Source: Nitrosopumilus sp. (lineage in GTDB: Archaea; Thermoproteota; Nitrososphaeria; Nitrososphaerales; Nitrosopumilaceae). Taken from it: 64,000 nt of DNA. Made by a program: the position numbers and the translations under genes. Shown one piece after another: positions 674 to 22,097 of the stretch (positions are counted from its first letter, which is position 1; each line of letters starts with the position of its first letter). Location of the stretch: contig OZ241981.1 of the NCBI GenBank assembly GCA_965204345.1, positions 1,952,001-2,016,000 of the forward strand, in the 5' to 3' direction. A model generated the notes under the pieces. It was given only the letters and a program-made list of their open reading frames with translations. It ran no database searches and was not told the DNA's origin.

Positions 674-1897
674 ATGAGTAAGAGTTTTGATACTTTTGTA
701 CATAATATAAAAAAAACATTAGAATTTTGTGAATTACGGGATTTTGAATCTATGACAGGTCATCAAAATGATGATGAATGGAAATCATTTTCCTCACATC
801 GCTATGCGGATAAAATAAATTATGATAATAGGTTTGTTATTACAAGACAAGCTAATCCTTATTATTTCAAATGTTTGGATTATTTAATAGGGCAACTAGA
901 CAAACCGTTTTCTGAAACATTTTACAACAAATTATTTCATGAATTTCTAGAGGAACAAAAAAGGAATAATTTTCAACTGACTGATTCTTGTAAAAAATTC
1001 ATAGACAAAATACATAGTATTAGAGAACCAGAATACAAATTTTTAATTCCCATAAGTCGCTCTCAACATTGGAAAAATTTGAATTTTGGAAAAATAAAAA
1101 TTGTTTTGCTTACTGAAGAAGTTTTAAAAGAAGAATTTAATCCATCTGATTCTCGCATTGCTAATTGTGAGGATCTCATAAAAACTAATGGCACTAATAT
1201 TTTCTCAATTGTAACAGTAAATGCCGTAGATGAAACTACTGCAAAAGAGATAGCCGAAGGGATGACTGAACGATATATTTACTCCAGAAAACTCTTAGAT
1301 CCTTTTACATTTATGCGATTAAGGAAAAATGATTTGCACCTAATTAATGAATCAATTCTAATGAGAAAAGATGATATGTTCTCTTGTGATCACTCTAATC
1401 ATGATATTCCGATAGGAAAGTCTCAATCTAAGCAATATTATGAAAAGTTAAAACCATATGAGGAAAAATTAAACAAATTCCTTTTTAATCCTACAACAGA
1501 CTTGCATAAAAAAATTTTAGATGCATTATACTGGTTTGGAGAAGTTGATCATTACAAAGACAGCAATATTAGAAAATTTTTGTCAAGAATTAATGGAATG
1601 GAAATAATTCTATTGAATAATTATACATGTCGTAAAAAATTTAAAAAGTTTGGCATTAATGCATCTTTATTTTTATACAAGGATGATACGCATGGGGTAT
1701 TTTATGAAAAGAATTATCTTAAAAGAAGCACCATAACTCATAAAACATTAGAATCCGTATCTGATCAAGAAGTATTAGATCAGATGTATGATCTAGGTGA
1801 GATTCTTTTAGCACTAATTGATCTTTCTACCAAATATTCCGATTTAGAGGGACTTTTAAAACAAGAATTTAACATAATTAATACAAATACGCCTTAG
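674..1897 (+). CDS. ApeA-like HEPN-domain protein (putative RNase/defence)
   Basis: C-terminal ALYWF...FL..INGMEIIL...YLKRSTITH matches the HEPN E...RxxxxH pattern; very AT-rich gene. Confidence 0.6.
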   Translation: MSKSFDTFVHNIKKTLEFCELRDFESMTGHQNDDEWKSFSSHRYADKINYDNRFVITRQANPYYFKCLDYLIGQLDKPFSETFYNKLFHEFLEEQKRNNFQLTDSCKKFIDKIHSIREPEYKFLIPISRSQHWKNLNFGKIKIVLLTEEVLKEEFNPSDSRIANCEDLIKTNGTNIFSIVTVNAVDETTAKEIAEGMTERYIYSRKLLDPFTFMRLRKNDLHLINESILMRKDDMFSCDHSNHDIPIGKSQSKQYYEKLKPYEEKLNKFLFNPTTDLHKKILDALYWFGEVDHYKDSNIRKFLSRINGMEIILLNNYTCRKKFKKFGINASLFLYKDDTHGVFYEKNYLKRSTITHKTLESVSDQEVLDQMYDLGEILLALIDLSTKYSDLEGLLKQEFNIINTNTP

Positions 1898-2078
1898 GCA
1901 AGGAATGCCACACACTAACTACAAGCAATCTGCCATACATCTGCCATCCTGATATCATTAGATCATCTGGTAACATCTTTGGTCATCTCTGGTCACTGCA
2001 AACACATCGTATTTCTGGACCATGTTTAACATGGCGGTAAAAATCCTAGTAAAGCATACAAGCTAACAGGCATGTTTT

Positions 2079-2222
2079 ACATACTTTACATAACCAAGTT
2101 TAACATACTTTACAAACCAAGTATTGCAATTTACAAATTATTTACTTAACATATGTGCCTAGCGGTATCGAAAAACCTGACCATTAGTGTACAACACTAG
2201 TGTACAACACTAGTAACAACAC
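2079..2222. repeat. Cluster of short direct repeats
   Basis: acatactttaca(t)aaccaagt at 2079 and 2103; tagtgtacaacac x2 plus one imperfect copy at 2185-2222. Confidence 0.8.
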
Positions 2223-2767
2223 TAATGTGCCACACAGAGTTAAATACGAAAAACCCATAGGTATGAAAATATTACGGATGCCATAAATGTTAAAATCGTG
2301 CCTAAAAAACGTGGACTAAGGTTAGATGCTGGCTTGTTATAGTCATCTATACTAAGATGATTTCTTATTATAGAAAACAGGGATATTCTATAACACGGTC
2401 CCATAACACGATTTCATGATATAATTATAAACAAAATTTCACACCTTGCCCATGATCCATGACGGGAGTTAGTATTACGCAGAGGGCAAGGTGCACACGT
2501 CGCAGTTTATAATAGGCATGGCTATTATTTATACCTCATTTATGCAATTGCCAGAATCTTTCATAAAAAATACACCCAAATTATTCTATAAAAAAGTGAT
2601 ACCAGTTCTGAAATTTCAGATATGCTTGTTTAGATACTGTAACATCATACAGGTGCATTTATCTTTGTAGCACAAACACTGTGAACAACACTTGAGACTG
2701 CAAGCTCACAGTGTTTGTAGCACAAACTATGTGACCAGTGTAAAAAATTTAACAGTAAGGAGATGAT

Positions 2768-2929
2768 ATGGAAACTATGAGAGTTGGAATTGGCGTGGAA
2801 CAGAAAAGTGTTTGTTCTGAATGTGGACATTCACTTACAAACCACATAATCACAGCAGACAGAAACTCACAAATTGTTAACGGAAAATGCAAGTCATGTC
2901 AATGTGATGGAACACTATCCATTGACTAG
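2768..2929 (+). CDS. Small zinc-binding protein (53 aa)
   Basis: Hand translation: METMRVGIGVEQKSVCSECGHSLTNHIITADRNSQIVNGKCKSCQCDGTLSID, with CxxCxH...H...CxxCxC. Confidence 0.55.
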   Translation: METMRVGIGVEQKSVCSECGHSLTNHIITADRNSQIVNGKCKSCQCDGTLSID

Positions 2930-3028
2930 TGTACAAAGTCTAGGCGTAAAATTAATGCTTTTATAAAATAAAATAAAGCAAAACATATAATCAAATGACA
3001 CTTTTAGTCAACAAAGTTAGGAATCAAG

Positions 3029-6000
3029 ATGAATAGTACTATAATTCTAGTGTTTTCTGTATTTCTTTTTGCAGGAGTCCTAGTTCCAGCACATGCACAA
3101 ATTTCTGAAAATGTGGTAATTAATGAAATAGATATCAATCCTCCCGGAGATGATTCTGCAGCTGTCTCTGAATGGATTGAACTATACAACCCGACTGATT
3201 CTGACGTTGACATTGGCGGGTGGGAAATTGCATCAACAACTGCCTTGAAAAAAACAATGACCATATCTTCAGACACTGTCATTGAACCTGGCCAATTTTT
3301 GACATATTCCTATCAAAGTCTTTGGTTTGCTGATACAAATGAATCTGTTGAACTCAGAGACGATGCCGGGGTTGTAATTGACAGCACTCCTTCGTTATCT
3401 GATACTAAAAATGATTTTACCTCTTGGCAAAGGCTCTATGATGGATATGATTCTGACAGTTCTGATGATTGGAAGTTTGTCGTATCTACAGCTGGCTCTT
3501 CAAACGGAAAACTAGTTGAAACGCAATCTTCTGAGGAATTATCTGTGACTGTTTTGGAACATGTCTCGTATATTTTTGGAGACGTTGCAGTAATTGAAGG
3601 AAGTGTTTCTAAAGAGGTTTTTGTCCTAAAGCCCTTTTTCAAGTCTGAACAAATTACTGTTACCATCACCGGTCCTGATTTTCATAAAATCATCACCTTG
3701 TATCCTGATCTTAATTTGAATTACAAAACTACTCTTAGCTTACATCAGGTATTGGGAATTAATGAGGGCACCTACAACGTATCTGTAGACTATGCCGGCG
3801 CAACTGCTGATACTAGTTTTTCAGTAGGTCATGAAATAATCAAAGAGGAAATTCAAAAAGAGGGCGACATTGGCATTCGTACCGATAAATCTCAATATCT
3901 TCCAGGCGAGACGGTCTCTATTGCTGGATTTGCAACTGATATTGTTCCTTTTCAGGGAATGAAATTTACTGTAACTGATGCCTTGGGCATTGTAGTTGAC
4001 AATGGAATTCTGTTTCCAACTGATGGTGAATTCCTGACTAGTGTTTTTCTGACCACAGTAGACCCCATTTATGGCGTTTATGACGTCTCTGCTGAATATT
4101 CTGACAAAACCATCTCTACCTCTTTTGAGGTTGTTGAGGATTTTAAAGAAAATACTGCAATATCTCTTTGGTCTGACAAGGTTGCATATCAAACAGGCGA
4201 TACAGTTACTCTTACTGGCAGGATAAATCAAGTTTGGATCAGTACATTGGATCTGCAAATTGTACAAACAAAGCAAAGTTCTATCAATACCCCTGGTAGC
4301 TATTCTGGGTTCAAAATTTTAGATAGTTTGAGAATATTGGGCGATGGCTCTTTTACATACTCGTTTGAAATTCCTGAGAATCCTTTAAGACAGGGTGATT
4401 ACAAGATTGATGTTTCCAAGGATATTGGAACTGCCTCTCTTCTTATTCACGTCGTAGATGATCCTGAAAATTTTGTCGTTTCATCTGATCGTTTAACTGT
4501 TGAAACTGATGCGCCTGTCTATGAACTTGGAGAATCTATGTCTCTTAGCGGTTTTGTTAAAAATCTCCTAACTAGTTCAAGCTATACTACCGGTTCTGTA
4601 GTTGATATCTCTGTTACTGATGAAAACGGGGATCCCATTGAAATTCTTACTCAATCTAATGTAGGCCAAAGCCCATCATTAACGTCTTATGATTTTACTG
4701 CAATTCCTGATACCTCTGGCAAATATTCAACCCAAATTGACATTGTCCCAAATTTTTTCAAAGTTGGAACTTATGTTATAACTGCACAATATAACACAGA
4801 TGTTGCAACTACCACTTTTTCTGTTGTTGATCCGTTGGATTTGAATAATAACAGATTGAGTGTTTCTATTGATAAAGACATCTATGGATTGGGAGAAGTT
4901 GTTCATTTGGATGGAATTGTTCCTCCACTAAGTGATCCATCCGTAGTCATCTCTGTCATCCGACCTGATGGAACTAGAACCGACTCTGGCGCTATACCTG
5001 AAAACCAGAGATTCTCTTTTAACTGGACTGTTCCTGCATACGAAAAACCCCCAATTTTAAAAGATGATGATGGTCGTAATGTTAGAATCTCTAATTATGG
5101 TGTCTACAAAATTACGATAGCAACTGTATCTCAAAGTACGAATCTTTTCTTTAAAGTTTCTGAGGATCCTGCTAATGACTCTTTATCCACTATTCCTCTG
5201 TTTGTTAGCACTGAAAAATCATTGTACAAGGCTGGCGAAAGATTGAAAGTTCTTGGAAATGTCATTCAACGTAGTCCGGGTAACGAAGGATTAGCTGTTA
5301 AAGAACGAGTACAACTACGAGTCATAGATGGGACATTCCCATTTGAGAAAATCCATGAGGCAAATGTTTATCCCACTCAGGGGGGAGAATTTTCAAGTTT
5401 GTTTGAATTACCTCCTACCATATTTAGTGAAGGTGAATACATAGTTCGTGCAAATTATAACAATGCTCAAACTGATACAAGATTCAGCGTAGCCAATGAT
5501 TTTGTCGTTGGAACAAACATTGATTTATCATTATTGTTGAATCTTGATAAACCACAATATCATCCTGGCGATGTTGTAGTTGTGTCTGGAAAACCTTCAA
5601 AGCTGATTTATCTTGAAAAATTTCAAGTATCCACCATCAAAAAATCTGATGCTGAAATAAATTGTGGCACTTTTATCTGTGGAACCAATACTGGTCCTGT
5701 TACCGAGATTAAACCCACACCTTCAGGTTCATTTGTACATGAATTTATGATTCCAAATGATGTCTCATCTATTGGTTCATATGAAACAACAGTAGATGCT
5801 GGTTTTGAAATCCGTTCCATTACATTTGATGTGATTGCAAAGCCCTCTTCAACATTGGATACTGTGATTGTAAAAGAAAATAGGATTTCTGAATCTGTCA
5901 TTTCTATTCCTACCGGGGAAAAAGCCGACGATGATGGTGTTTCTATTGCTCCTAGAGTGCTTACTGGTTCCTTGATTACTCCTTCTAGGGGAGAAGAATC

Positions 6001-6295
6001 AAATGTCAACCTTAAAGTATCCTCTGAAAACGGAACCTGCATTGTTGGCCCTGATGCTGACTGTCTGGTACAAGAATCTACTAGAAAACCAGGCCAAATT
6101 TATGATGTTGTTACTGTGGATGGATTAGATTACAATGTTAGGTACAGCGGCCCTGACGTACGCCTTGAAAAATTCAGTATTTTGCCTGAATCCCCTGATG
6201 AATTCCTGCCTGACACTAATTGGAGTGTTAAAGTAGTAAAAGACGAACAAATTTCACGATTTTATTACAAAATAACCTACAAAACTTTGGAATAG
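3029..6295 (+). CDS. Secreted lamin-tail-domain protein with repeated Ig-like/MG2-type modules
   Basis: Signal peptide; VVINEI..NP.G.D...EWIELYNP lamin tail motif; repeated 'TDKxxYxxGE.V.I.G' beta modules. Confidence 0.8.
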   Translation: MNSTIILVFSVFLFAGVLVPAHAQISENVVINEIDINPPGDDSAAVSEWIELYNPTDSDVDIGGWEIASTTALKKTMTISSDTVIEPGQFLTYSYQSLWFADTNESVELRDDAGVVIDSTPSLSDTKNDFTSWQRLYDGYDSDSSDDWKFVVSTAGSSNGKLVETQSSEELSVTVLEHVSYIFGDVAVIEGSVSKEVFVLKPFFKSEQITVTITGPDFHKIITLYPDLNLNYKTTLSLHQVLGINEGTYNVSVDYAGATADTSFSVGHEIIKEEIQKEGDIGIRTDKSQYLPGETVSIAGFATDIVPFQGMKFTVTDALGIVVDNGILFPTDGEFLTSVFLTTVDPIYGVYDVSAEYSDKTISTSFEVVEDFKENTAISLWSDKVAYQTGDTVTLTGRINQVWISTLDLQIVQTKQSSINTPGSYSGFKILDSLRILGDGSFTYSFEIPENPLRQGDYKIDVSKDIGTASLLIHVVDDPENFVVSSDRLTVETDAPVYELGESMSLSGFVKNLLTSSSYTTGSVVDISVTDENGDPIEILTQSNVGQSPSLTSYDFTAIPDTSGKYSTQIDIVPNFFKVGTYVITAQYNTDVATTTFSVVDPLDLNNNRLSVSIDKDIYGLGEVVHLDGIVPPLSDPSVVISVIRPDGTRTDSGAIPENQRFSFNWTVPAYEKPPILKDDDGRNVRISNYGVYKITIATVSQSTNLFFKVSEDPANDSLSTIPLFVSTEKSLYKAGERLKVLGNVIQRSPGNEGLAVKERVQLRVIDGTFPFEKIHEANVYPTQGGEFSSLFELPPTIFSEGEYIVRANYNNAQTDTRFSVANDFVVGTNIDLSLLLNLDKPQYHPGDVVVVSGKPSKLIYLEKFQVSTIKKSDAEINCGTFICGTNTGPVTEIKPTPSGSFVHEFMIPNDVSSIGSYETTVDAGFEIRSITFDVIAKPSSTLDTVIVKENRISESVISIPTGEKADDDGVSIAPRVLTGSLITPSRGEESNVNLKVSSENGTCIVGPDADCLVQESTRKPGQIYDVVTVDGLDYNVRYSGPDVRLEKFSILPESPDEFLPDTNWSVKVVKDEQISRFYYKITYKTLE

Positions 6296-6327
6296 CTTTT
6301 AAAATGATTTTATAATTTTTAATTAAA

Positions 6328-6819
6328 ATGAAATTACAGGTTTTGATGCTTTATCAAGATGATCCCAAAAAGTGTACAGCGGCAAAAATGGTAAAGTTTG
6401 GTCTTGTACAAAACATCAAGAAAATCGGAACCAAGGGATTGGTGTTGGATCCTTTCTCTGAAAAAACACTATTGCCTAGAGATAAGTCCACAATTCGCTC
6501 TATTATTGGAATTGATTGTTCGTGGAATCTTGCAAATCAGGCCTTTTCTGCAAAATTTGCCGGCATCAAAAGAAAATTGCCTCCCTTACTAGCTGGCAAC
6601 CCTGTAAATTATTCAAAACTAAACAAACTAACTACGGCTGAGGCAATATCTGCATCCCTGTTTGTTTTGGGATTTGAGGACCAAGCTATGAAGCTACTTG
6701 ACAAATTCAAATGGGGCCACACGTTTTATGAACTCAATCAAAATCTTCTAAAAGAATACTCTAAACTTGAAAATGAAAGCCAGATTGAACTAATTCTCAA
6801 GGATTATGGGTTGGGCTGA
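6328..6819 (+). CDS. tsr3: 16S rRNA aminocarboxypropyltransferase Tsr3 (DUF367)
   Basis: DDPKKCTA, IDCSW and RKLPPLLAGNPVNY motifs. Confidence 0.9.
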   Translation: MKLQVLMLYQDDPKKCTAAKMVKFGLVQNIKKIGTKGLVLDPFSEKTLLPRDKSTIRSIIGIDCSWNLANQAFSAKFAGIKRKLPPLLAGNPVNYSKLNKLTTAEAISASLFVLGFEDQAMKLLDKFKWGHTFYELNQNLLKEYSKLENESQIELILKDYGLG

Positions 6820-10015: not shown

Positions 10016-11756
10016 AAAGACTGGTTATGAATAATAAAACGCCCCCAATGACAAATCCCTTGGTGATCTTTAGCGAATTATCCAGTGCTTTAGAATAGTC
10101 TTTGTAGATGTTTTGACCCATGACTTTGACCTTTGTTTCATTTTCTAAAATCTCAAATTTCGCAGGCGCCGTATTGACTTCGGCTGTTTTTGCAATTTTG
10201 AAGAACCATTTTGAGAGCTTATCTGCGCTTGTAATTAGCCCTAATTGATAGTACCCATTTCTGTTTCTTGCTTTAACCGGAGCATAATGCGTGTCTGATG
10301 TACATATCTCAAGCAGATTGTAATCCCTCTTTGCAAAAATATCTATGATTTTTTCTCTTACTCCATTTTCCATATTGTTTGCATCTGCCCATCCTAGAAA
10401 ATATTTTTTGCTATTAATTTTTAGACACGTGATTCCCAATCCTCCCATTCCCAAATCCTCTGCCCAAACATCCATGTCGTCTGTATTTGCATATCCAAAT
10501 TCTATTGGAAAATTATTTTTTGTAATCAATGTATCCAGACATGATTTTGCAGCCTTTAGCATATCTTCCCCGTCTTCCTTTGATATTTCCTCCCCCATTG
10601 CATTGTGACAGTCAACTGCCAGTATTCTTGTATAGTTTCTGTTCTTAGAATACTGTTCAATCTCTGTCTTCATATAAGTTGGAATATCCTCCATTCCGTG
10701 TGGCGACAGTGATAAAAACAGCAATGGGTTGTTCCCAAAACGAATCCCCGTGACTCTTGCTTTGTTTATTTGAACCGTAACCGGCTCTGAGCACTGCATT
10801 CCTTCCTCCTTGACTGTACTGTTTTCCATATTTTTCAAGTAATTTTCAACTTCATTTCTTGATGGAAGGTTTAGCGCATGGTCTGAAATGCTATGCATTA
10901 CCATTGCAGATGATGACAGGTTTTTGTAAATTAGGTATGGTATGTTGCTGCCCCCTACCGGGTGGTATGGACCTGGATGTATCTCTGGCAGCACCATTCT
11001 GAATTCTTTGTCTCCTGCATGATCTGAGAATTTTATTTGAGACGTAGTAACTTTGGTTTCTGAGGATTGCTTTTCCATCAGCTCTTCGGCATCTGCAAAA
11101 TCGTTTCCCTGTGATGCAAGATATGCTTGAATGGTCTTGTGAGTACTTTCCATCTCCGGCCTGCCTGCCCTGTCTGTCATTATTGACCATATGTTTGCAA
11201 TTATCAAAAATACAATGCCGTATGCTAATCCTACTGGTTCATTTAGTATTTCAAACCATATGCTTTGTGGGATTAACACTGCAAACATTGCCAACGGCTG
11301 AATAAATGCAATTGCCCAAGCTTTTTTGAGGCTAATCCCCAATGTTGTTGTGTATATTCCAATTCTAAAACTTGCAAAAAGCATCATTCCAAAAACTATG
11401 AAAAATAGTTGTACCTCCTTGGATAAAACCAGACTTGCAAGCAGTCCCATCAGAATTGTTACTACCCATAGCATGCTACCAAAAAATGACGAATGCAGTG
11501 ATTTTGAATATTCCTTCTTCTTTGTAAATTTTGTATCCAATACCTGTGTTAGTGCCAAAACCCCTAGGACTATTGGTAATCTGTACCATACTTCATCTGT
11601 ATATGTTTCTCCAAGATATCCAAAATATGTTGCAAGTGTAATTACTGCTCCTACTCCTAGTGAGGCTGCTAATGAAAAATAATGTGACCCTGGGTTGATC
11701 AGCGTAAGTGAAAATCTATTGTGTATGTTTGAAACATCGTCTGGATCTTTTTCCAT
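10008..11756 (-). CDS. DUF2070 family membrane protein
   Basis: N-terminal TMs, then HPGP, VDCHN, DANN and TSDTH motifs; adjacent to Sec61beta. Confidence 0.8.
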   Translation of the reverse strand: MEKDPDDVSNIHNRFSLTLINPGSHYFSLAASLGVGAVITLATYFGYLGETYTDEVWYRLPIVLGVLALTQVLDTKFTKKKEYSKSLHSSFFGSMLWVVTILMGLLASLVLSKEVQLFFIVFGMMLFASFRIGIYTTTLGISLKKAWAIAFIQPLAMFAVLIPQSIWFEILNEPVGLAYGIVFLIIANIWSIMTDRAGRPEMESTHKTIQAYLASQGNDFADAEELMEKQSSETKVTTSQIKFSDHAGDKEFRMVLPEIHPGPYHPVGGSNIPYLIYKNLSSSAMVMHSISDHALNLPSRNEVENYLKNMENSTVKEEGMQCSEPVTVQINKARVTGIRFGNNPLLFLSLSPHGMEDIPTYMKTEIEQYSKNRNYTRILAVDCHNAMGEEISKEDGEDMLKAAKSCLDTLITKNNFPIEFGYANTDDMDVWAEDLGMGGLGITCLKINSKKYFLGWADANNMENGVREKIIDIFAKRDYNLLEICTSDTHYAPVKARNRNGYYQLGLITSADKLSKWFFKIAKTAEVNTAPAKFEILENETKVKVMGQNIYKDYSKALDNSLKITKGFVIGGVLLFITSLFI

Positions 11757-11763
11757 TGTTTCT

Positions 11764-11928
11764 TCACGGAGCTAAAAATGCATCAATTATCCATGAAATT
11801 ACGATTAAACTAATTGGAATGGATACTACGATTTTTGGGTCGATCTTGAATCCTTTTGTCTCATCTTCAAAGAATCGCATGAGACCCCCACTTGATGCTG
11901 GAAGTGGTGCTGATTTCTTATCTGCCAT
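11764..11928 (-). CDS. secG: Preprotein translocase subunit Sec61beta (SecG)
   Basis: Not in ORF track. Hand translation: MADKKSAPLPASSGGLMRFFEDETKGFKIDPKIVVSIPISLIVISWIIDAFLAP. Confidence 0.9.
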   Translation of the reverse strand: MADKKSAPLPASSGGLMRFFEDETKGFKIDPKIVVSIPISLIVISWIIDAFLAP

Positions 11929-12196
11929 TACAATTCGTCGTTGCGGATTTTAACATAAAAACTTTATTCTGTGTCCAAAATATGACCCTAAACCCAGATT
12001 TTATCAGAATCGTGGTGGGATTCAGGTGATCACAAGTCAGTCTATGACAGGAACTGACAACTCAAATTTTTCCCTTACTGAGCATCTGGCCCAATTCTGT
12101 TTATTCTGATATTTGAACCGATTCGGTAGATGGGGTGTGTGTGTGTGTAGATACAGTCCTTCAAAGATAATACTGATATGCGAGACGATCTGTGGG

Positions 12197-12355
12197 CGGT
12201 TCTGGTAAATTTTGGCGCTTCATGCCACAAATCACAGATTTGGAAAGTCTGAACTGCACTGGGATTTTTTGATGACTAGATAGTTTAAGAAAATCATCTC
12301 TTGGCAATTTACTGTTAAATTTCAGTGAACAGATCATCAGAATTTATCAGAACCG
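12197..12355 (+). mobile_element. Full-length MITE-like repeat with 18-bp imperfect terminal inverted repeats
   Basis: Left end cggttctggtaaattttg vs reverse complement of right end cggttctgataaattctg (16/18); related copies at 421, 13210, 19775 and 21405. Confidence 0.75.
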
Positions 12356-12527
12356 AACCACGTATGCGTATGTCAGTGATCCGACTGTGACAAAAAGCAT
12401 GTCTGTGCCAGTCACTGCAGCCCTTTTGACAAATTGTTGTTTTGACATGGACTCGTGCGAGTTTCGGAAAATTATTCCTCATCAGCGTGCCTTTCTAGTT
12501 GAGTTATATTGGTAGAATGATGTGATG

Positions 12528-12598
12528 TAGTGAGGGCTAAGGGTATACTGTCATCATATTGATGTTCAGAATGAGTGGATCTTACATGGCCCTCACTA
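12528..12598 (-). ncRNA. Putative box C/D-like guide RNA unit 1 (degenerate C box)
   Basis: Minus strand: TAGTGAGGGC-C-ATGTAAGA-TCCACTCATT-CTGA-ACATCAAT-ATGATGA-CAGTATACC-CTTA-GCCCTCACTA. Confidence 0.4.
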
Positions 12599-12706
12599 TC
12601 CAGTATCTGGCTGTCTTGAAAAATTGCGCATGGTCTGAGTTTCAGGAATCAACCCTGTATTCCCAGATGCCTTCTAGTTGAGTTATATTGGTAGAATGAT
12701 GTGATG

Positions 12707-12777
12707 TAGTGAGGGCTAAGGGTATACTGTCATCATATTGATGTTCAGATCAACGCCGACTCATCATGCCCTCACTA
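12707..12777 (-). ncRNA. Putative box C/D-like guide RNA unit 2
   Basis: Minus strand: TAGTGAGGGC-ATGATGA-GTCGGCGTTGAT-CTGA-ACATCAAT-ATGATGA-CAGTATACC-CTTA-GCCCTCACTA. Perfect C, D' and C' boxes, variant D box, 10-bp terminal stem. Confidence 0.55.
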
Positions 12778-12967
12778 TCCTATATTCTAATTCCGAATCT
12801 CTTGGAAGGTGCAAAGTATTGGATTTTGAAAAAGGCTGTTGCAGAAAATGGTTTTGGGTTTTGGAGATTTGATTTTCAAAGACTTGGTTTTGTTTTTTTG
12901 ATTTTGTTTTTTGGTTTTTGAAGATTTAATTTTTGGAAATTGCACAATTTTGATGTCATGTAATTAC

Positions 12968-13209
12968 GCGATAGTTGAAATGGATGTCGTGTGATTGTGT
13001 GATATTTTGGATGATTTTTGTGTAAATTGCCTGCTTTGTGTTTGGAACTAAAGTTAGGGATTTTTCCTTATCTGTGCTAAAAGTTGTGTTTTTTGGGTTT
13101 GTTTAATATCTGATACAACTTTTGTACCAAGGGCGTTTTGTTAACCCCCTTTTTGCAGTGGTTTTTTGATACCATTAGACTGCGATAGTTGCAATGGATA
13201 TCGCGTAAT
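12968..13209. repeat. Pair of 28-bp imperfect hairpin repeats (12968-12995, 13182-13209)
   Basis: gcgatagttgaaatggatgtcgtgtgat vs gcgatagttgcaatggatatcgcgtaat (4 mismatches). Confidence 0.75.
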
Positions 13210-13362
13210 GGTTCAGGCAAATTCTGATGAACTGATCACTGGAATTTAACAGTAAATCGCATAGATGATTTTCTTAAACTATCCAGTCATCAAAAAATCC
13301 CAAAAAAGTGCGGTTCAGAGATTGCACTGATTTACGGCACAGGCCACCAATTTACCATAGCC
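13210..13362 (-). mobile_element. MITE-like repeat copy in inverted orientation
   Basis: Reverse complement contains gggattttttgatgactggatagtttaagaaaatcatct...catcagaatttgcctgaacc, matching 12197-12355. Confidence 0.8.
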
Positions 13363-13443
13363 ATCACTAGATTAAAAGCCAGGTTTGATATATTATGCCC
13401 AAAATTATGAATCTGGGGTTAAATCTCAGATGGAGAACAAATC

Positions 13444-13773
13444 TTATTGTTTGTCTTGAATTTTACCCATTGTTTCTAGTATGGCGTTGATGGTTTTTAG
13501 AATTTCTTGTTGTCTGTCATGATTAGTCTCATGTTCTAATTCTTTTGACAAGCTCTCTATCTTTTTTTCCAGGCTCTCTTTTATGGGATTTTTACTCTCA
13601 CTTGTCGATTCTTTGGGAATATCTTTTTTCTCAGGTGTCCGTCCACAACTGATGCACAATGCCTGGCCCTTGCTTATGACCCTGACTCCCTTGCAGTATG
13701 GGCATGGTTCACTGAGTAATGTTGCCCCCTTTAGCAGCATATCTGCTGCTTTCTTTGTCAGATCCTCTGCCAT
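13444..13773 (-). CDS. UPF0148 / SSSCA1 (autoantigen p27) family zinc-ribbon protein
   Basis: ADMLLKGATLLSEPCPYC...CISC. Confidence 0.85.
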   Translation of the reverse strand: MAEDLTKKAADMLLKGATLLSEPCPYCKGVRVISKGQALCISCGRTPEKKDIPKESTSESKNPIKESLEKKIESLSKELEHETNHDRQQEILKTINAILETMGKIQDKQ

Positions 13774-21404: not shown

Positions 21405-21550
21405 CGGTTCTGGTACATTCTGGCGTTCCATGCCATAAATTCACAGATTTAGCTGTCTCTGAAAATACTTTGGGAATTTTTTTCTGAGTATTACCTCTTG
21501 GTAATTTTTAAGAGAATCATCTTTTGGCAATTTGCTGCTAAATTCCGATG
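21405..21550 (+). mobile_element. 5' part of the MITE-like repeat (lacks right TIR)
   Basis: cggttctggtacattctggcgttccatgccataaattcacagattt...ttaagagaatcatcttttggcaattt aligns with 12197-12325. Confidence 0.75.
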
Positions 21551-22097
21551 CTTTTCAAGAATTGTTATAAAGTTTCAGAAAAAGGTTTCAAATAACTTTC
21601 AATTTTTACTCTGATATTTTTTTTCTTTGATTTATGATTGTCATTGCATGTCCTTGCAAATGACCCTTGTCTAGCAGATATTTTTTGTGTTGTGAATACT
21701 GAATTCTTTTCCACCACAGCTGTACTTCATATTTTTTTATTAACGTCCTGTATCAATTCATGCTTGATTTTTAAAATTTGGAATGTGTGCTGGGAGTAAC
21801 CCTCCTTCTGTTTTCACGATATTTCGCTTTGCAGCCTACCTGAACCTAGTACAGGATCTTAAAGTTCTGTTTGGCTTTGCTCCATGTGGGTCGTCTGTTT
21901 CATTCCTTTTATGGAAACCTCAGGTTTTGCCATCACCGTGCGCCATATTGGATTCTTTTCTGTTCCGTTGCCAATCATCTCTGATTATCTATCTCCAGAT
22001 CACATTTCCTGTATGGAGGGAGGAGTTTCCTCTGCCGTAGCAGTGTGTCGTGCTCCAGCTCACATAATTCCTATTTCTTAATTGGATTTGAGTATTA

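Follow-up and report, generated by a model that had tools for sequence, protein, structure and literature searches.

A probable decaying duplicate of a box C/D small RNA, hammerhead and nuclease-like gene module in a Nitrosopumilus genome

The stretch of DNA analyzed here (64,000 nucleotides, referred to as the window) belongs to Nitrosopumilus sp. (GenBank assembly GCA_965204345.1, contig OZ241981.1, positions 1,952,001 to 2,016,000). Its minus strand carries, one after the other, two small RNA (sRNA) units of the box C/D kind (units A and B), a type I hammerhead ribozyme motif and a short open reading frame (ORF) whose start codon lies inside the hammerhead ( Table 1 ). The locus is probably a decaying partial duplicate of a module made up of two C/D sRNA genes, a hammerhead and a gene for a membrane-anchored nuclease-like protein, and in the intact modules of relatives the hammerhead would cut just before the AUG of that gene.

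Unit A reads TAGTGAGGGC-ATGATGA-GTCGGCGTTGAT-CTGA-ACATCAAT-ATGATGA-CAGTATACC-CTTA-GCCCTCACTA on the minus strand, and unit B has the same scaffold except that CATGTAA stands where the C box would be and the first guide is GATCCACTCATT. Both are closed by a perfect 10-bp stem (UAGUGAGGGC/GCCCUCACUA), whose predicted folds are stable (-23.9 kcal/mol, z -3.3, and -20.1 kcal/mol, z -3.1) and which encloses the C-box position, a 12-nt guide, CUGA, ACAUCAAU, AUGAUGA, CAGUAUACC and CUUA, in this order. A C box of the form RUGAUGA near the 5' end is present in unit A (AUGAUGA) and absent from unit B, where it has decayed to CAUGUAA. The internal D' (CUGA) and C' (UGAUGA) boxes are intact in both, with 12 nt between C and D' and a short second spacer of 9 nt, while the D box near the 3' end, which as CUGA makes up the terminal kink-turn (k-turn) with box C, is mutated to CUUA in both. 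The D' guides are GUCGGCGUUGAU in unit A and GAUCCACUCAUU in unit B, the latter being a member of the GUUCCAUUCAUU class with two changes. The units share a 78-nt direct repeat of 100% identity (12493-12570 and 12672-12749) at a spacing of 179 nt, and the sole difference between the units is an 18-nt block (plus strand 12571-12588 vs 12750-12767). This anatomy agrees with a first-pass annotation of the sequence, which had recognized two stem-closed C/D-like units on the minus strand with a period of about 180 bp, sharing scaffold, second guide and flank and differing in the first guide, and which had rightly cautioned about the CTTA D box, one degenerate C box and a TATA-like motif (TTATAT/AATATAA) in the conserved flank.

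A covariance model (R1) built from six units, the two of the window and four relatives, recovers four copies in the genome itself; of the 151 genomes of the genus searched, 16 contain copies, this one counted among them. Several relatives carry tandem arrays of units with different guides ( Table 1 ), which answers the search for further scaffold copies proposed in the first-pass annotation. An exact scaffold pattern compared with 185,579 species, one genome each, matched 13 stretches (11 from Nitrosopumilus, one from Nitrosopumilaceae and one from a 'Crenarchaeota archaeon'), and it had no match in the viral contigs scanned. Covariation of the stem in homologues, another of the proposed checks, was also found: over 50 distinct units the closing stem is paired in 90.9% of the cells, six of its 10 pairs are altered on both sides, and none of 500 shuffles reached its covariation score. 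The inner part, GAGGGC/GCCCUC, is nearly invariant and the outer pairs covary (at one position U-A in 24 units and A-U in 23, with none unpaired). Because R1 finds copies in this genome and in its relatives, and because the closing stem covaries, the two-unit feature is not due to chance.

The protein partners of C/D sRNAs are encoded in the same genome, with matches to PF01798 (Nop, 224.8 bits), PF01269 (fibrillarin, 295.2 bits) and PF01248 (L7Ae, 96 bits); the single Nop-domain ORF (C1:874689-875348) adjoins fibrillarin and lies about 1.09 Mb from the window. Against Rfam, E-value searches of 11700-13500 and 12400-12530 gave a weak match to sR49 (24.2 bits), the family as a whole gave weak matches to sR49, snoPyro_CD and sR3, all below the gathering thresholds, and a search of the window at gathering thresholds reported RNase P RNA alone. 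Guide classes are common to several of the species whose family members were compared. Given their boxes, the covariation of the stem, the guide-target matches described below and the presence of Nop5, fibrillarin and L7Ae, the units are of the archaeal box C/D methylation-guide kind and constitute a lineage-specific Nitrosopumilaceae family recognizable by its GAGGGC/GCCCUC stem. The architecture named at first pass is thus upheld, the units being homologous to canonical C/D sRNAs and having the same box order. With other archaeal box C/D sRNAs (e.g. snoPyro_CD RF00095 and the sR families) they have in common the C-guide-D'-C'-guide-D layout, guides of about 12 nt complementary to rRNA or tRNA sites, and proteins encoded elsewhere in the genome. 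They differ in the closing stem of 8-10 bp with its almost invariant core, in arrays of up to about 14 units, often followed by a hammerhead, and, for the window copies, in the broken D box and the C box missing from one unit. In plants and yeast, polycistronic small nucleolar RNA (snoRNA) clusters likewise hold several C/D guide RNAs head to tail and are freed by protein nucleases. The archaeal arrays resemble these clusters in the head-to-tail order of C/D guides, probably within one precursor, and differ in that a ribozyme marks the 3' boundary with an mRNA. Clusters of C/D RNAs exist in archaea, plants, yeast and vertebrates (PMC12045711).

The R1 scores also bear on the strand, at 92.1 bits (unit A) and 82.0 bits (unit B) on the minus strand against 18.9 and 17.6 bits on the plus strand. 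If instead the plus strand were transcribed, the conserved TTATATT 25 nt before the stem would be the promoter of a hairpin RNA antisense to the C/D-like sequence. The TATA-like motif is indeed roughly symmetric, the stem is just as stable when folded from the plus strand (-23.6 kcal/mol) and the RNA contigs discussed below carry no strand; but the ORF, the core of the hammerhead and all four boxes (C, D', C' and D) are read on the minus strand and the distance from motif to stem varies between species, which, with the scores, makes plus-strand transcription very improbable.

Guides were scored from the D or D' box against the rRNAs and tRNAs of the genome that holds the window. A score of at least 9 was reached by 17 of 65 distinct family guides and by 14 of 195 shuffled guides. 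The GUUCCAUUCAUU guide forms 11 Watson-Crick pairs with large subunit (LSU) rRNA 2068-2078, and the GCCGCGUGCAAU guide forms 10 pairs with tRNA-Ala. At the paralogous locus of the same genome (locus 2, see below) three well-matching guides point to LSU 1999-2010, 2017-2027 and 2067-2078, all within 80 nt, in a stretch that corresponds to helices 68-71 of domain IV. The predicted target nucleotides, at the fifth pair from D or D', would be about LSU 2003, 2021 and 2071 and SSU 908. The D' guide of unit A belongs to the ..GGCGUUGAU class and makes 10 pairs with LSU 1999-2009 (seven Watson-Crick and three G.U) or, alternatively, nine pairs with small subunit (SSU) rRNA 904-912. The duplex of the unit B D' guide (..CCAUUCAUU class with two changes) with LSU 2067-2078 is broken by two mismatches, one of the changes adjoining the predicted target nucleotide (LSU-2071 class). 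In this comparison of guides with rRNA and tRNA, also suggested at first pass, the D-side second spacers of the window units match over at most 7 bp. Whole guides of 9-18 nt had no perfect match in rRNA or tRNA, and a single exact match of 13 nt between the genome and a locus-2 guide (C1:979995) is no more than chance would give, considering how many guides were tried. In locus 2 and in genome G164 the two guide classes follow each other in the order opposite to that of the window.

A likeness to the tigRNAs of TIGR-Tas systems, raised in the first-pass annotation, does not hold. Like tigRNAs, the units have a dual-guide C-guide-D'-C'-guide-D layout and are tandemly repeated (PMC12045711), as would suit a TIGR-Tas-like or IS110-bridge-like DNA-targeting guide array with its effector elsewhere. 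However, the sole Nop-domain ORF of the genome, next to fibrillarin, is a normal Nop5, no second such ORF that could be a Tas gene was found genome-wide, the window neighbors are unrelated (DUF2070, p27-type zinc ribbon, Rce1-like protease, TFIIB and solute-binding protein genes), and PF01548, searched for as the IS110 DEDD transposase, had zero matches in this 99.7%-complete genome. As described in PMC12045711, TIGR arrays consist of units of about 36 nt, with two alternating repeats of 8-12 nt and 9-nt spacers or with stem-loop units, against 71-nt units, a 179-nt period, 12-nt guides and k-turn boxes here. The family guides also fall in classes kept between species and match rRNA and tRNA, and not both DNA strands as set out for tigRNAs in the same paper (Faure et al. 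2025, PMC12045711), and the scaffold occurs in none of the viral contigs scanned. Identity with TIGR-Tas was rejected for lack of a Tas gene and for unit and guide dimensions (PMC12045711), and identity with an IS110 bridge RNA for lack of an IS110 DEDD recombinase, so that a DNA-targeting array deserves next to no credence. That there is no adjacent effector remains correct; this is no anomaly, since L7Ae, Nop5 and fibrillarin are encoded in trans. Taken alone, the two window units are ordinary decaying spare methylation-guide genes and no pointer to a new programmable system.

Directly after unit B, minus-strand nucleotides 12491..12444 read GGCACG-CUGAUGA-GGAAUAAUUUUCC-GAA-ACUCGCACGAGU-C/CAUGUC, the slash marking the predicted cut after C12450, between 12450 and 12449. 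The hammerhead core is complete, with CUGAUGA at 12485-12479, GAA at 12465-12463, A12462 paired with U12451, and C12450 as position 17. Stem I is GGCACG/CAUGUC, with one A.C mismatch, stem II is GGAA/UUCC and stem III is ACUC/GAGU, and the minimum-energy fold is the three-way junction. A descriptor scan of the genome gave three matches, two of them at the two C/D loci, against 2, 1, 0, 0 and 0 in shuffled genomes. The motif stands directly after the last C/D unit in genomes G161, G164 (both arrays), G135 and G154 and on contig L052, with differing stem sequences. A covariance model of the motif (R2) finds it in seven of the 151 Nitrosopumilus genomes; among 151 drawn from across 27 genera of the family, it occurs in three further genomes, which belong to two other genera. 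A C/D unit lies within about 90 nt upstream of the hammerhead in 12 of 18 instances, and in two of six in the set from other genera. In an alignment of 17 distinct sequences 96.6% of the cells are paired, nine of 14 pairs are changed on both sides, the covariation score is above that of every one of 500 shuffles, and registers slid out of place pair in at most 40% of cells; the covariation extends to all three stems and spans three genera. The Rfam model Hammerhead_1 (RF00163) gives the three L052 copies 35.4, 33.8 and 28.2 bits, its gathering score being 34. On the whole genome, where 150 of 213 candidates were scored, the two hammerheads are not among its matches, which is not evidence against them. 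The motif has in common with the type I hammerheads of RF00163 the core (CUGANGA, GAAA, A15.1-U16.1, H17), three helices and an open stem I; it differs in being chromosomal in ammonia-oxidizing archaea, in usually following a C/D sRNA gene directly, and in having at positions 1.2-1.4 an AUG that appears to be the start codon of the next gene.

Tandem hammerheads were also observed at another locus, L044 (G135:C2:113000-130000), where positions 6125-6771 of the minus strand hold three copies of a hammerhead followed by a 34-codon ORF at a period of 297 nt. Cuts at successive copies would free unit-length RNAs with 5'-OH and cyclic-phosphate ends, possible substrates for circularization. The same strand holds, at 1383-4888 and just downstream of the C/D array and the hammerhead repeats, eight tandem tRNA genes with a period of about 225 nt (Rfam tRNA 41.8-44.9 bits), whose anticodon arm carries a 23-nt insert and whose variable arm is long.

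The ORF that begins in stem I of the window hammerhead is a stub corresponding to the N-terminal membrane anchor of a staphylococcal-nuclease homologue, and cleavage would leave a one-nucleotide leader on the downstream mRNA. With a descriptor that did not require AUG, 10 of 10 distinct hammerheads had N-AUG after the cut, and across the 17 aligned sequences stem I keeps its three central pairs (CAU/AUG) with little or no variation. Among the six hammerheads from other genera AUG occupies +2..+4 in three and +3..+5 in two, and one has GUG. The hammerhead AUG opens an ORF of at least 30 codons in 20 of 22 cases, compared with 33% of the other ATGs of the same loci, and one of at least 50 codons in 15 of 22, compared with 21%. 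In genomes G159, G161, G164 (twice), G154 and G193 the ORF encodes 221-234 residues, comprising an N-terminal membrane anchor and a staphylococcal-nuclease domain; all four proteins tested matched Pfam SNase, three of them above the cut-off. Six nuclease homologues align from residue 1, including that of G158, in which the ATG lies 37 nt beyond the hammerhead, and because of this alignment the stem I AUG is judged to be the real start codon of the nuclease gene. Counted over the genome (C1), TATA-like hexamers are most frequent at -31 to -27 relative to ATGs (176 of 954 upstream regions, vs about 10 per position elsewhere) and a Shine-Dalgarno-like peak at -12 to -9 is weak, which suggests that leaderless mRNAs are common in this Nitrosopumilus.

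R1 detected no C/D unit in G159 at E <=0.01. There the hammerhead and nuclease gene (L063, 1000-1500) are preceded by the 3' end of an ORF which, by eye, resembles a DDE transposase core (..DNGSQYVSKKF..).

The history of the window copy is indicated by locus 2, a canonical pair situated 1.7 Mb away. Its first unit consists of AUGAUGA, a 13-nt guide, CUGA, a linker, UGAUGA, a 10-nt guide and CUGA, and the second keeps this order, its D' being GUGA and its second guide 11 nt long. The locus 2 units differ along their whole length, whereas those of the window are identical over a tract that starts at D', takes in the mutated D box and extends into the 3' flank. When the two 179-nt periods are aligned with those of locus 2, the spacer between units A and B proves homologous to the hammerhead and first codons of the gene, in decayed form, and the 179-nt period is for this reason read as a duplicated module of sRNA, hammerhead and first codons. 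The window pair would thus be a degenerate partial duplicate of the C/D-C/D-hammerhead-gene module that has probably lost its guide function, and not a working cassette. According to this model both D boxes changed to CUUA, so that the terminal k-turn should not form, one C box was lost, one guide came to mismatch its target, the 3' two-thirds of both units were homogenized and the nuclease gene was cut to 33 codons by a dispersed repeat. Nor does the idea of a reprogrammed guide survive: both first guides belong to classes found across species and the rest of the units, broken D box included, is homogenized. The shared 78 nt look like a conversion tract, and the pattern would be better accounted for if two different family members had undergone gene conversion or unequal crossing-over with each other, leaving only the 5' 18 nt distinct, than by exchange of a spacer.

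An alternative is that both units of the window function as guide RNAs despite their unusual D box, possibly half-mers that use the C'/D' k-loop and have the long stem in place of the terminal k-turn, with a new target possible for unit B. The intact D' CUGA and C' UGAUGA of both units, the stable closing stem and the pairing of the unit A guide with LSU 1999-2009 favor it, as do contigs of a metatranscriptome study, which in four runs match 12544-12767 (12581-12806 in run X12) with two differing letters each and, in X12, one inserted letter. These contigs span the A-B spacer and include the CUUA of unit A. Other short pieces of RNA contigs continue into ..LAADIPG-coding sequence, that is, into the intact gene of a relative. 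Yet with CUUA a G that takes part in the sheared G.A pairs characteristic of a k-turn is lost, and CUUA is absent from all 48 other distinct family members listed, most of which read CUGA. Unit B is without a C box, the second spacers have the poor rRNA and tRNA matches given above, and the unit B guide is best seen as the conserved LSU-2071 class with two mismatches; the perfect identity over 78 nt is no sign of selection either way. Working units are therefore considered unlikely, and a decaying duplicate remains the preferred reading.

Several observations weigh against the duplicate-and-hammerhead interpretation. The presence of the window copy in RNA libraries sits uneasily with a dead copy, and the 10-bp pairing that the unit A guide retains with LSU rRNA is awkward for it; the RNA contigs are assembled, from one study, and give no strand, ends or level, and DNA carry-over is possible. 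The window stretches lacking RNA-contig cover (12100-12354, 12408-12543 and 12892-13199) are uninformative, and the 78-nt repeat would in any case break assemblies there. As to the ribozyme, RF00163 had no match in the window up to E 10 (11700-13500 and 12400-12530), stem I contains the A.C mismatch, and fold energies are no better than those of shuffles (z +0.46 and -0.96), as is usual for such short motifs. AATATAA, 19 nt before the window hammerhead, would as a promoter at leaderless spacing start transcription inside the ribozyme core. The motif recurs at the unit-hammerhead junctions of G161, G164 and G135; among the junctions compared it is missing at L052, L066, L067 and L030, and its distance to the hammerhead varies from 11 to 60 nt. 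On these three grounds (the core, the distance and the missing copies) its role as a promoter is doubtful. As to the start codon, R2 was built from AUG-containing sequences, which biases its later matches to AUG, and the related genomes are kin, so that their counts lack independence. The window's nuclease ORF ends after 33 codons and that of locus 2 after 48, the nuclease body being gone at both; tblastn detected elsewhere in the genome only a paralogue of 33% identity. Finally, 29 viral contigs (L082-L110, IMG/VR, 30-49% GC) carry 31 hammerheads with a perfect 6-bp stem I and N-AUG-N-CAA, and seven of the 31 open at least 50 codons. As viral hammerheads bear the AUG and few of them open ORFs of that length, the AUG is in part characteristic of the hammerhead class itself, and what is peculiar to the archaea is that it is used as a start codon.

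With these points taken into account, minus-strand transcription of an intact module would produce, in this order, two sRNAs, a type I hammerhead and the message of a staphylococcal-nuclease-like gene. The sRNAs would act with the trans-encoded L7Ae, Nop5 and fibrillarin on rRNA and tRNA, and the hammerhead, by cleaving itself one nucleotide before the AUG in its own stem I, would part the sRNA portion from a leaderless mRNA, presumably translated as such. A broader proposal, that a phage-type hammerhead was domesticated in Nitrosopumilaceae to generate the 5' ends of mRNAs, by which one transcript gives both C/D sRNA precursors and a leaderless mRNA in an organism most of whose promoters lie at leaderless distance from start codons, with a fossil of such a module in the window, is made tentatively and with slightly more doubt than conviction. 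A partial precedent exists in haloviruses HF1 and HF2, where an HHphage hammerhead lies 13 nt before the start codon of a helicase and, in HF2, a mapped 5' end falls within 3 nt of the cut (PMC3088659). Hammerheads also flank prophage genes and have been proposed to process long transcripts into gene-length mRNAs (PMC3088659). The likeness is a hammerhead on the 5' side of a coding region; the differences are a predicted cut 1 nt (in a few cases 2) before the AUG, an AUG inside stem I, a guide sRNA as upstream partner and a cellular archaeon as host.

Among the papers searched there was none on hammerhead ribozymes in Nitrosopumilus, although the class may already be listed in the alignments of Dataset S1 of the PMC3088659 survey, none on C/D sRNAs in Nitrosopumilus or other ammonia-oxidizing archaea and, in titles and abstract openings, nothing on a hammerhead-leaderless or start-codon arrangement in archaea. 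According to PMC3088659, most genomic hammerheads have no known biological role, and only about three were known in archaea by 2011. A C/D sRNA family of ammonia-oxidizing archaea is now defined by covariation, arrays and predicted targets clustered in an 80-nt part of LSU rRNA, and a hammerhead predicted to cut one nucleotide ahead of the start codons of real genes, in three genera, offers a concrete, testable role. If the proposal is true, a hammerhead frees a leaderless mRNA from an upstream non-coding RNA, and an organism that initiates on leaderless mRNAs can still place a gene behind another RNA.

Table 1. Positions of the features at the locus and of tandem unit arrays in related genomes.
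Feature	Position	Strand	Remarks
Unit A	12777..12707	minus	71-nt stem-closed box C/D sRNA paralogue
Unit B	12598..12528	minus	71 nt, scaffold as in unit A
Type I hammerhead motif	12441..12493	minus	directly 3' of unit B; R2 67.9 bits
Stub ORF	12347..12448	minus	33 codons (MSKQQFVKRAAVTGTDMLFVTVGSLTYAYVVRF, then stop); AUG 12448-12446 at hammerhead positions 1.2-1.4
Relic hammerhead and gene start	12628..12671	minus	between units A and B; CUGAUGA core and stem III both lost
Duplicated segment	12359..12973	minus	615 bp, 79% identical to locus 2, C1:262652-263263 (blastn)
AATATAA (TATA-like)	12504..12510	minus	3' flank of unit B; copy at 12683-12689 after unit A
UCGCGUAAUUA motif	12961..12971	minus	upstream of unit A; spotted by eye
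Dispersed, partly palindromic repeat	12198..12357	plus	abuts end of duplicated segment, truncates nuclease ORF
Tandem arrays	G164		7 and 6 units, period about 130 nt
Tandem array	G161		4 units, period 234 nt
Tandem array	G141		4 units, period 234 nt
Tandem array	G135		about 14 units, period 215-300 nt

The near-palindromic UCGCGUAAUUA(C) seen upstream of unit A, a candidate promoter or operator, has similar counterparts before the first C/D unit of the arrays in G164 (L042 and L043; twice in one array) and before the single unit in G007 (flank of L006). Between this motif and unit A, 12857-12933 holds A-rich (minus strand) short repeats of the CAAAAC type with a 28-29-nt periodicity, of which locus 2 lacks 23 nt.

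The locus is ordinary chromosome, in an assembly of 2.12 Mb with about 37% GC. The repeat that truncates the nuclease ORF has an inverted copy at 13210-13324, and the two bracket the C/D-hammerhead fossil. It measures about 70-160 nt, recurs at 488-565 and 21405-21544, matches dozens of genomic sites, with both strands hit at one and the same site, and looks like a miniature inverted-repeat transposable element. Further along the window, the archaeal RNase P RNA lies on the minus strand at 21785-22063 (195.8 bits).

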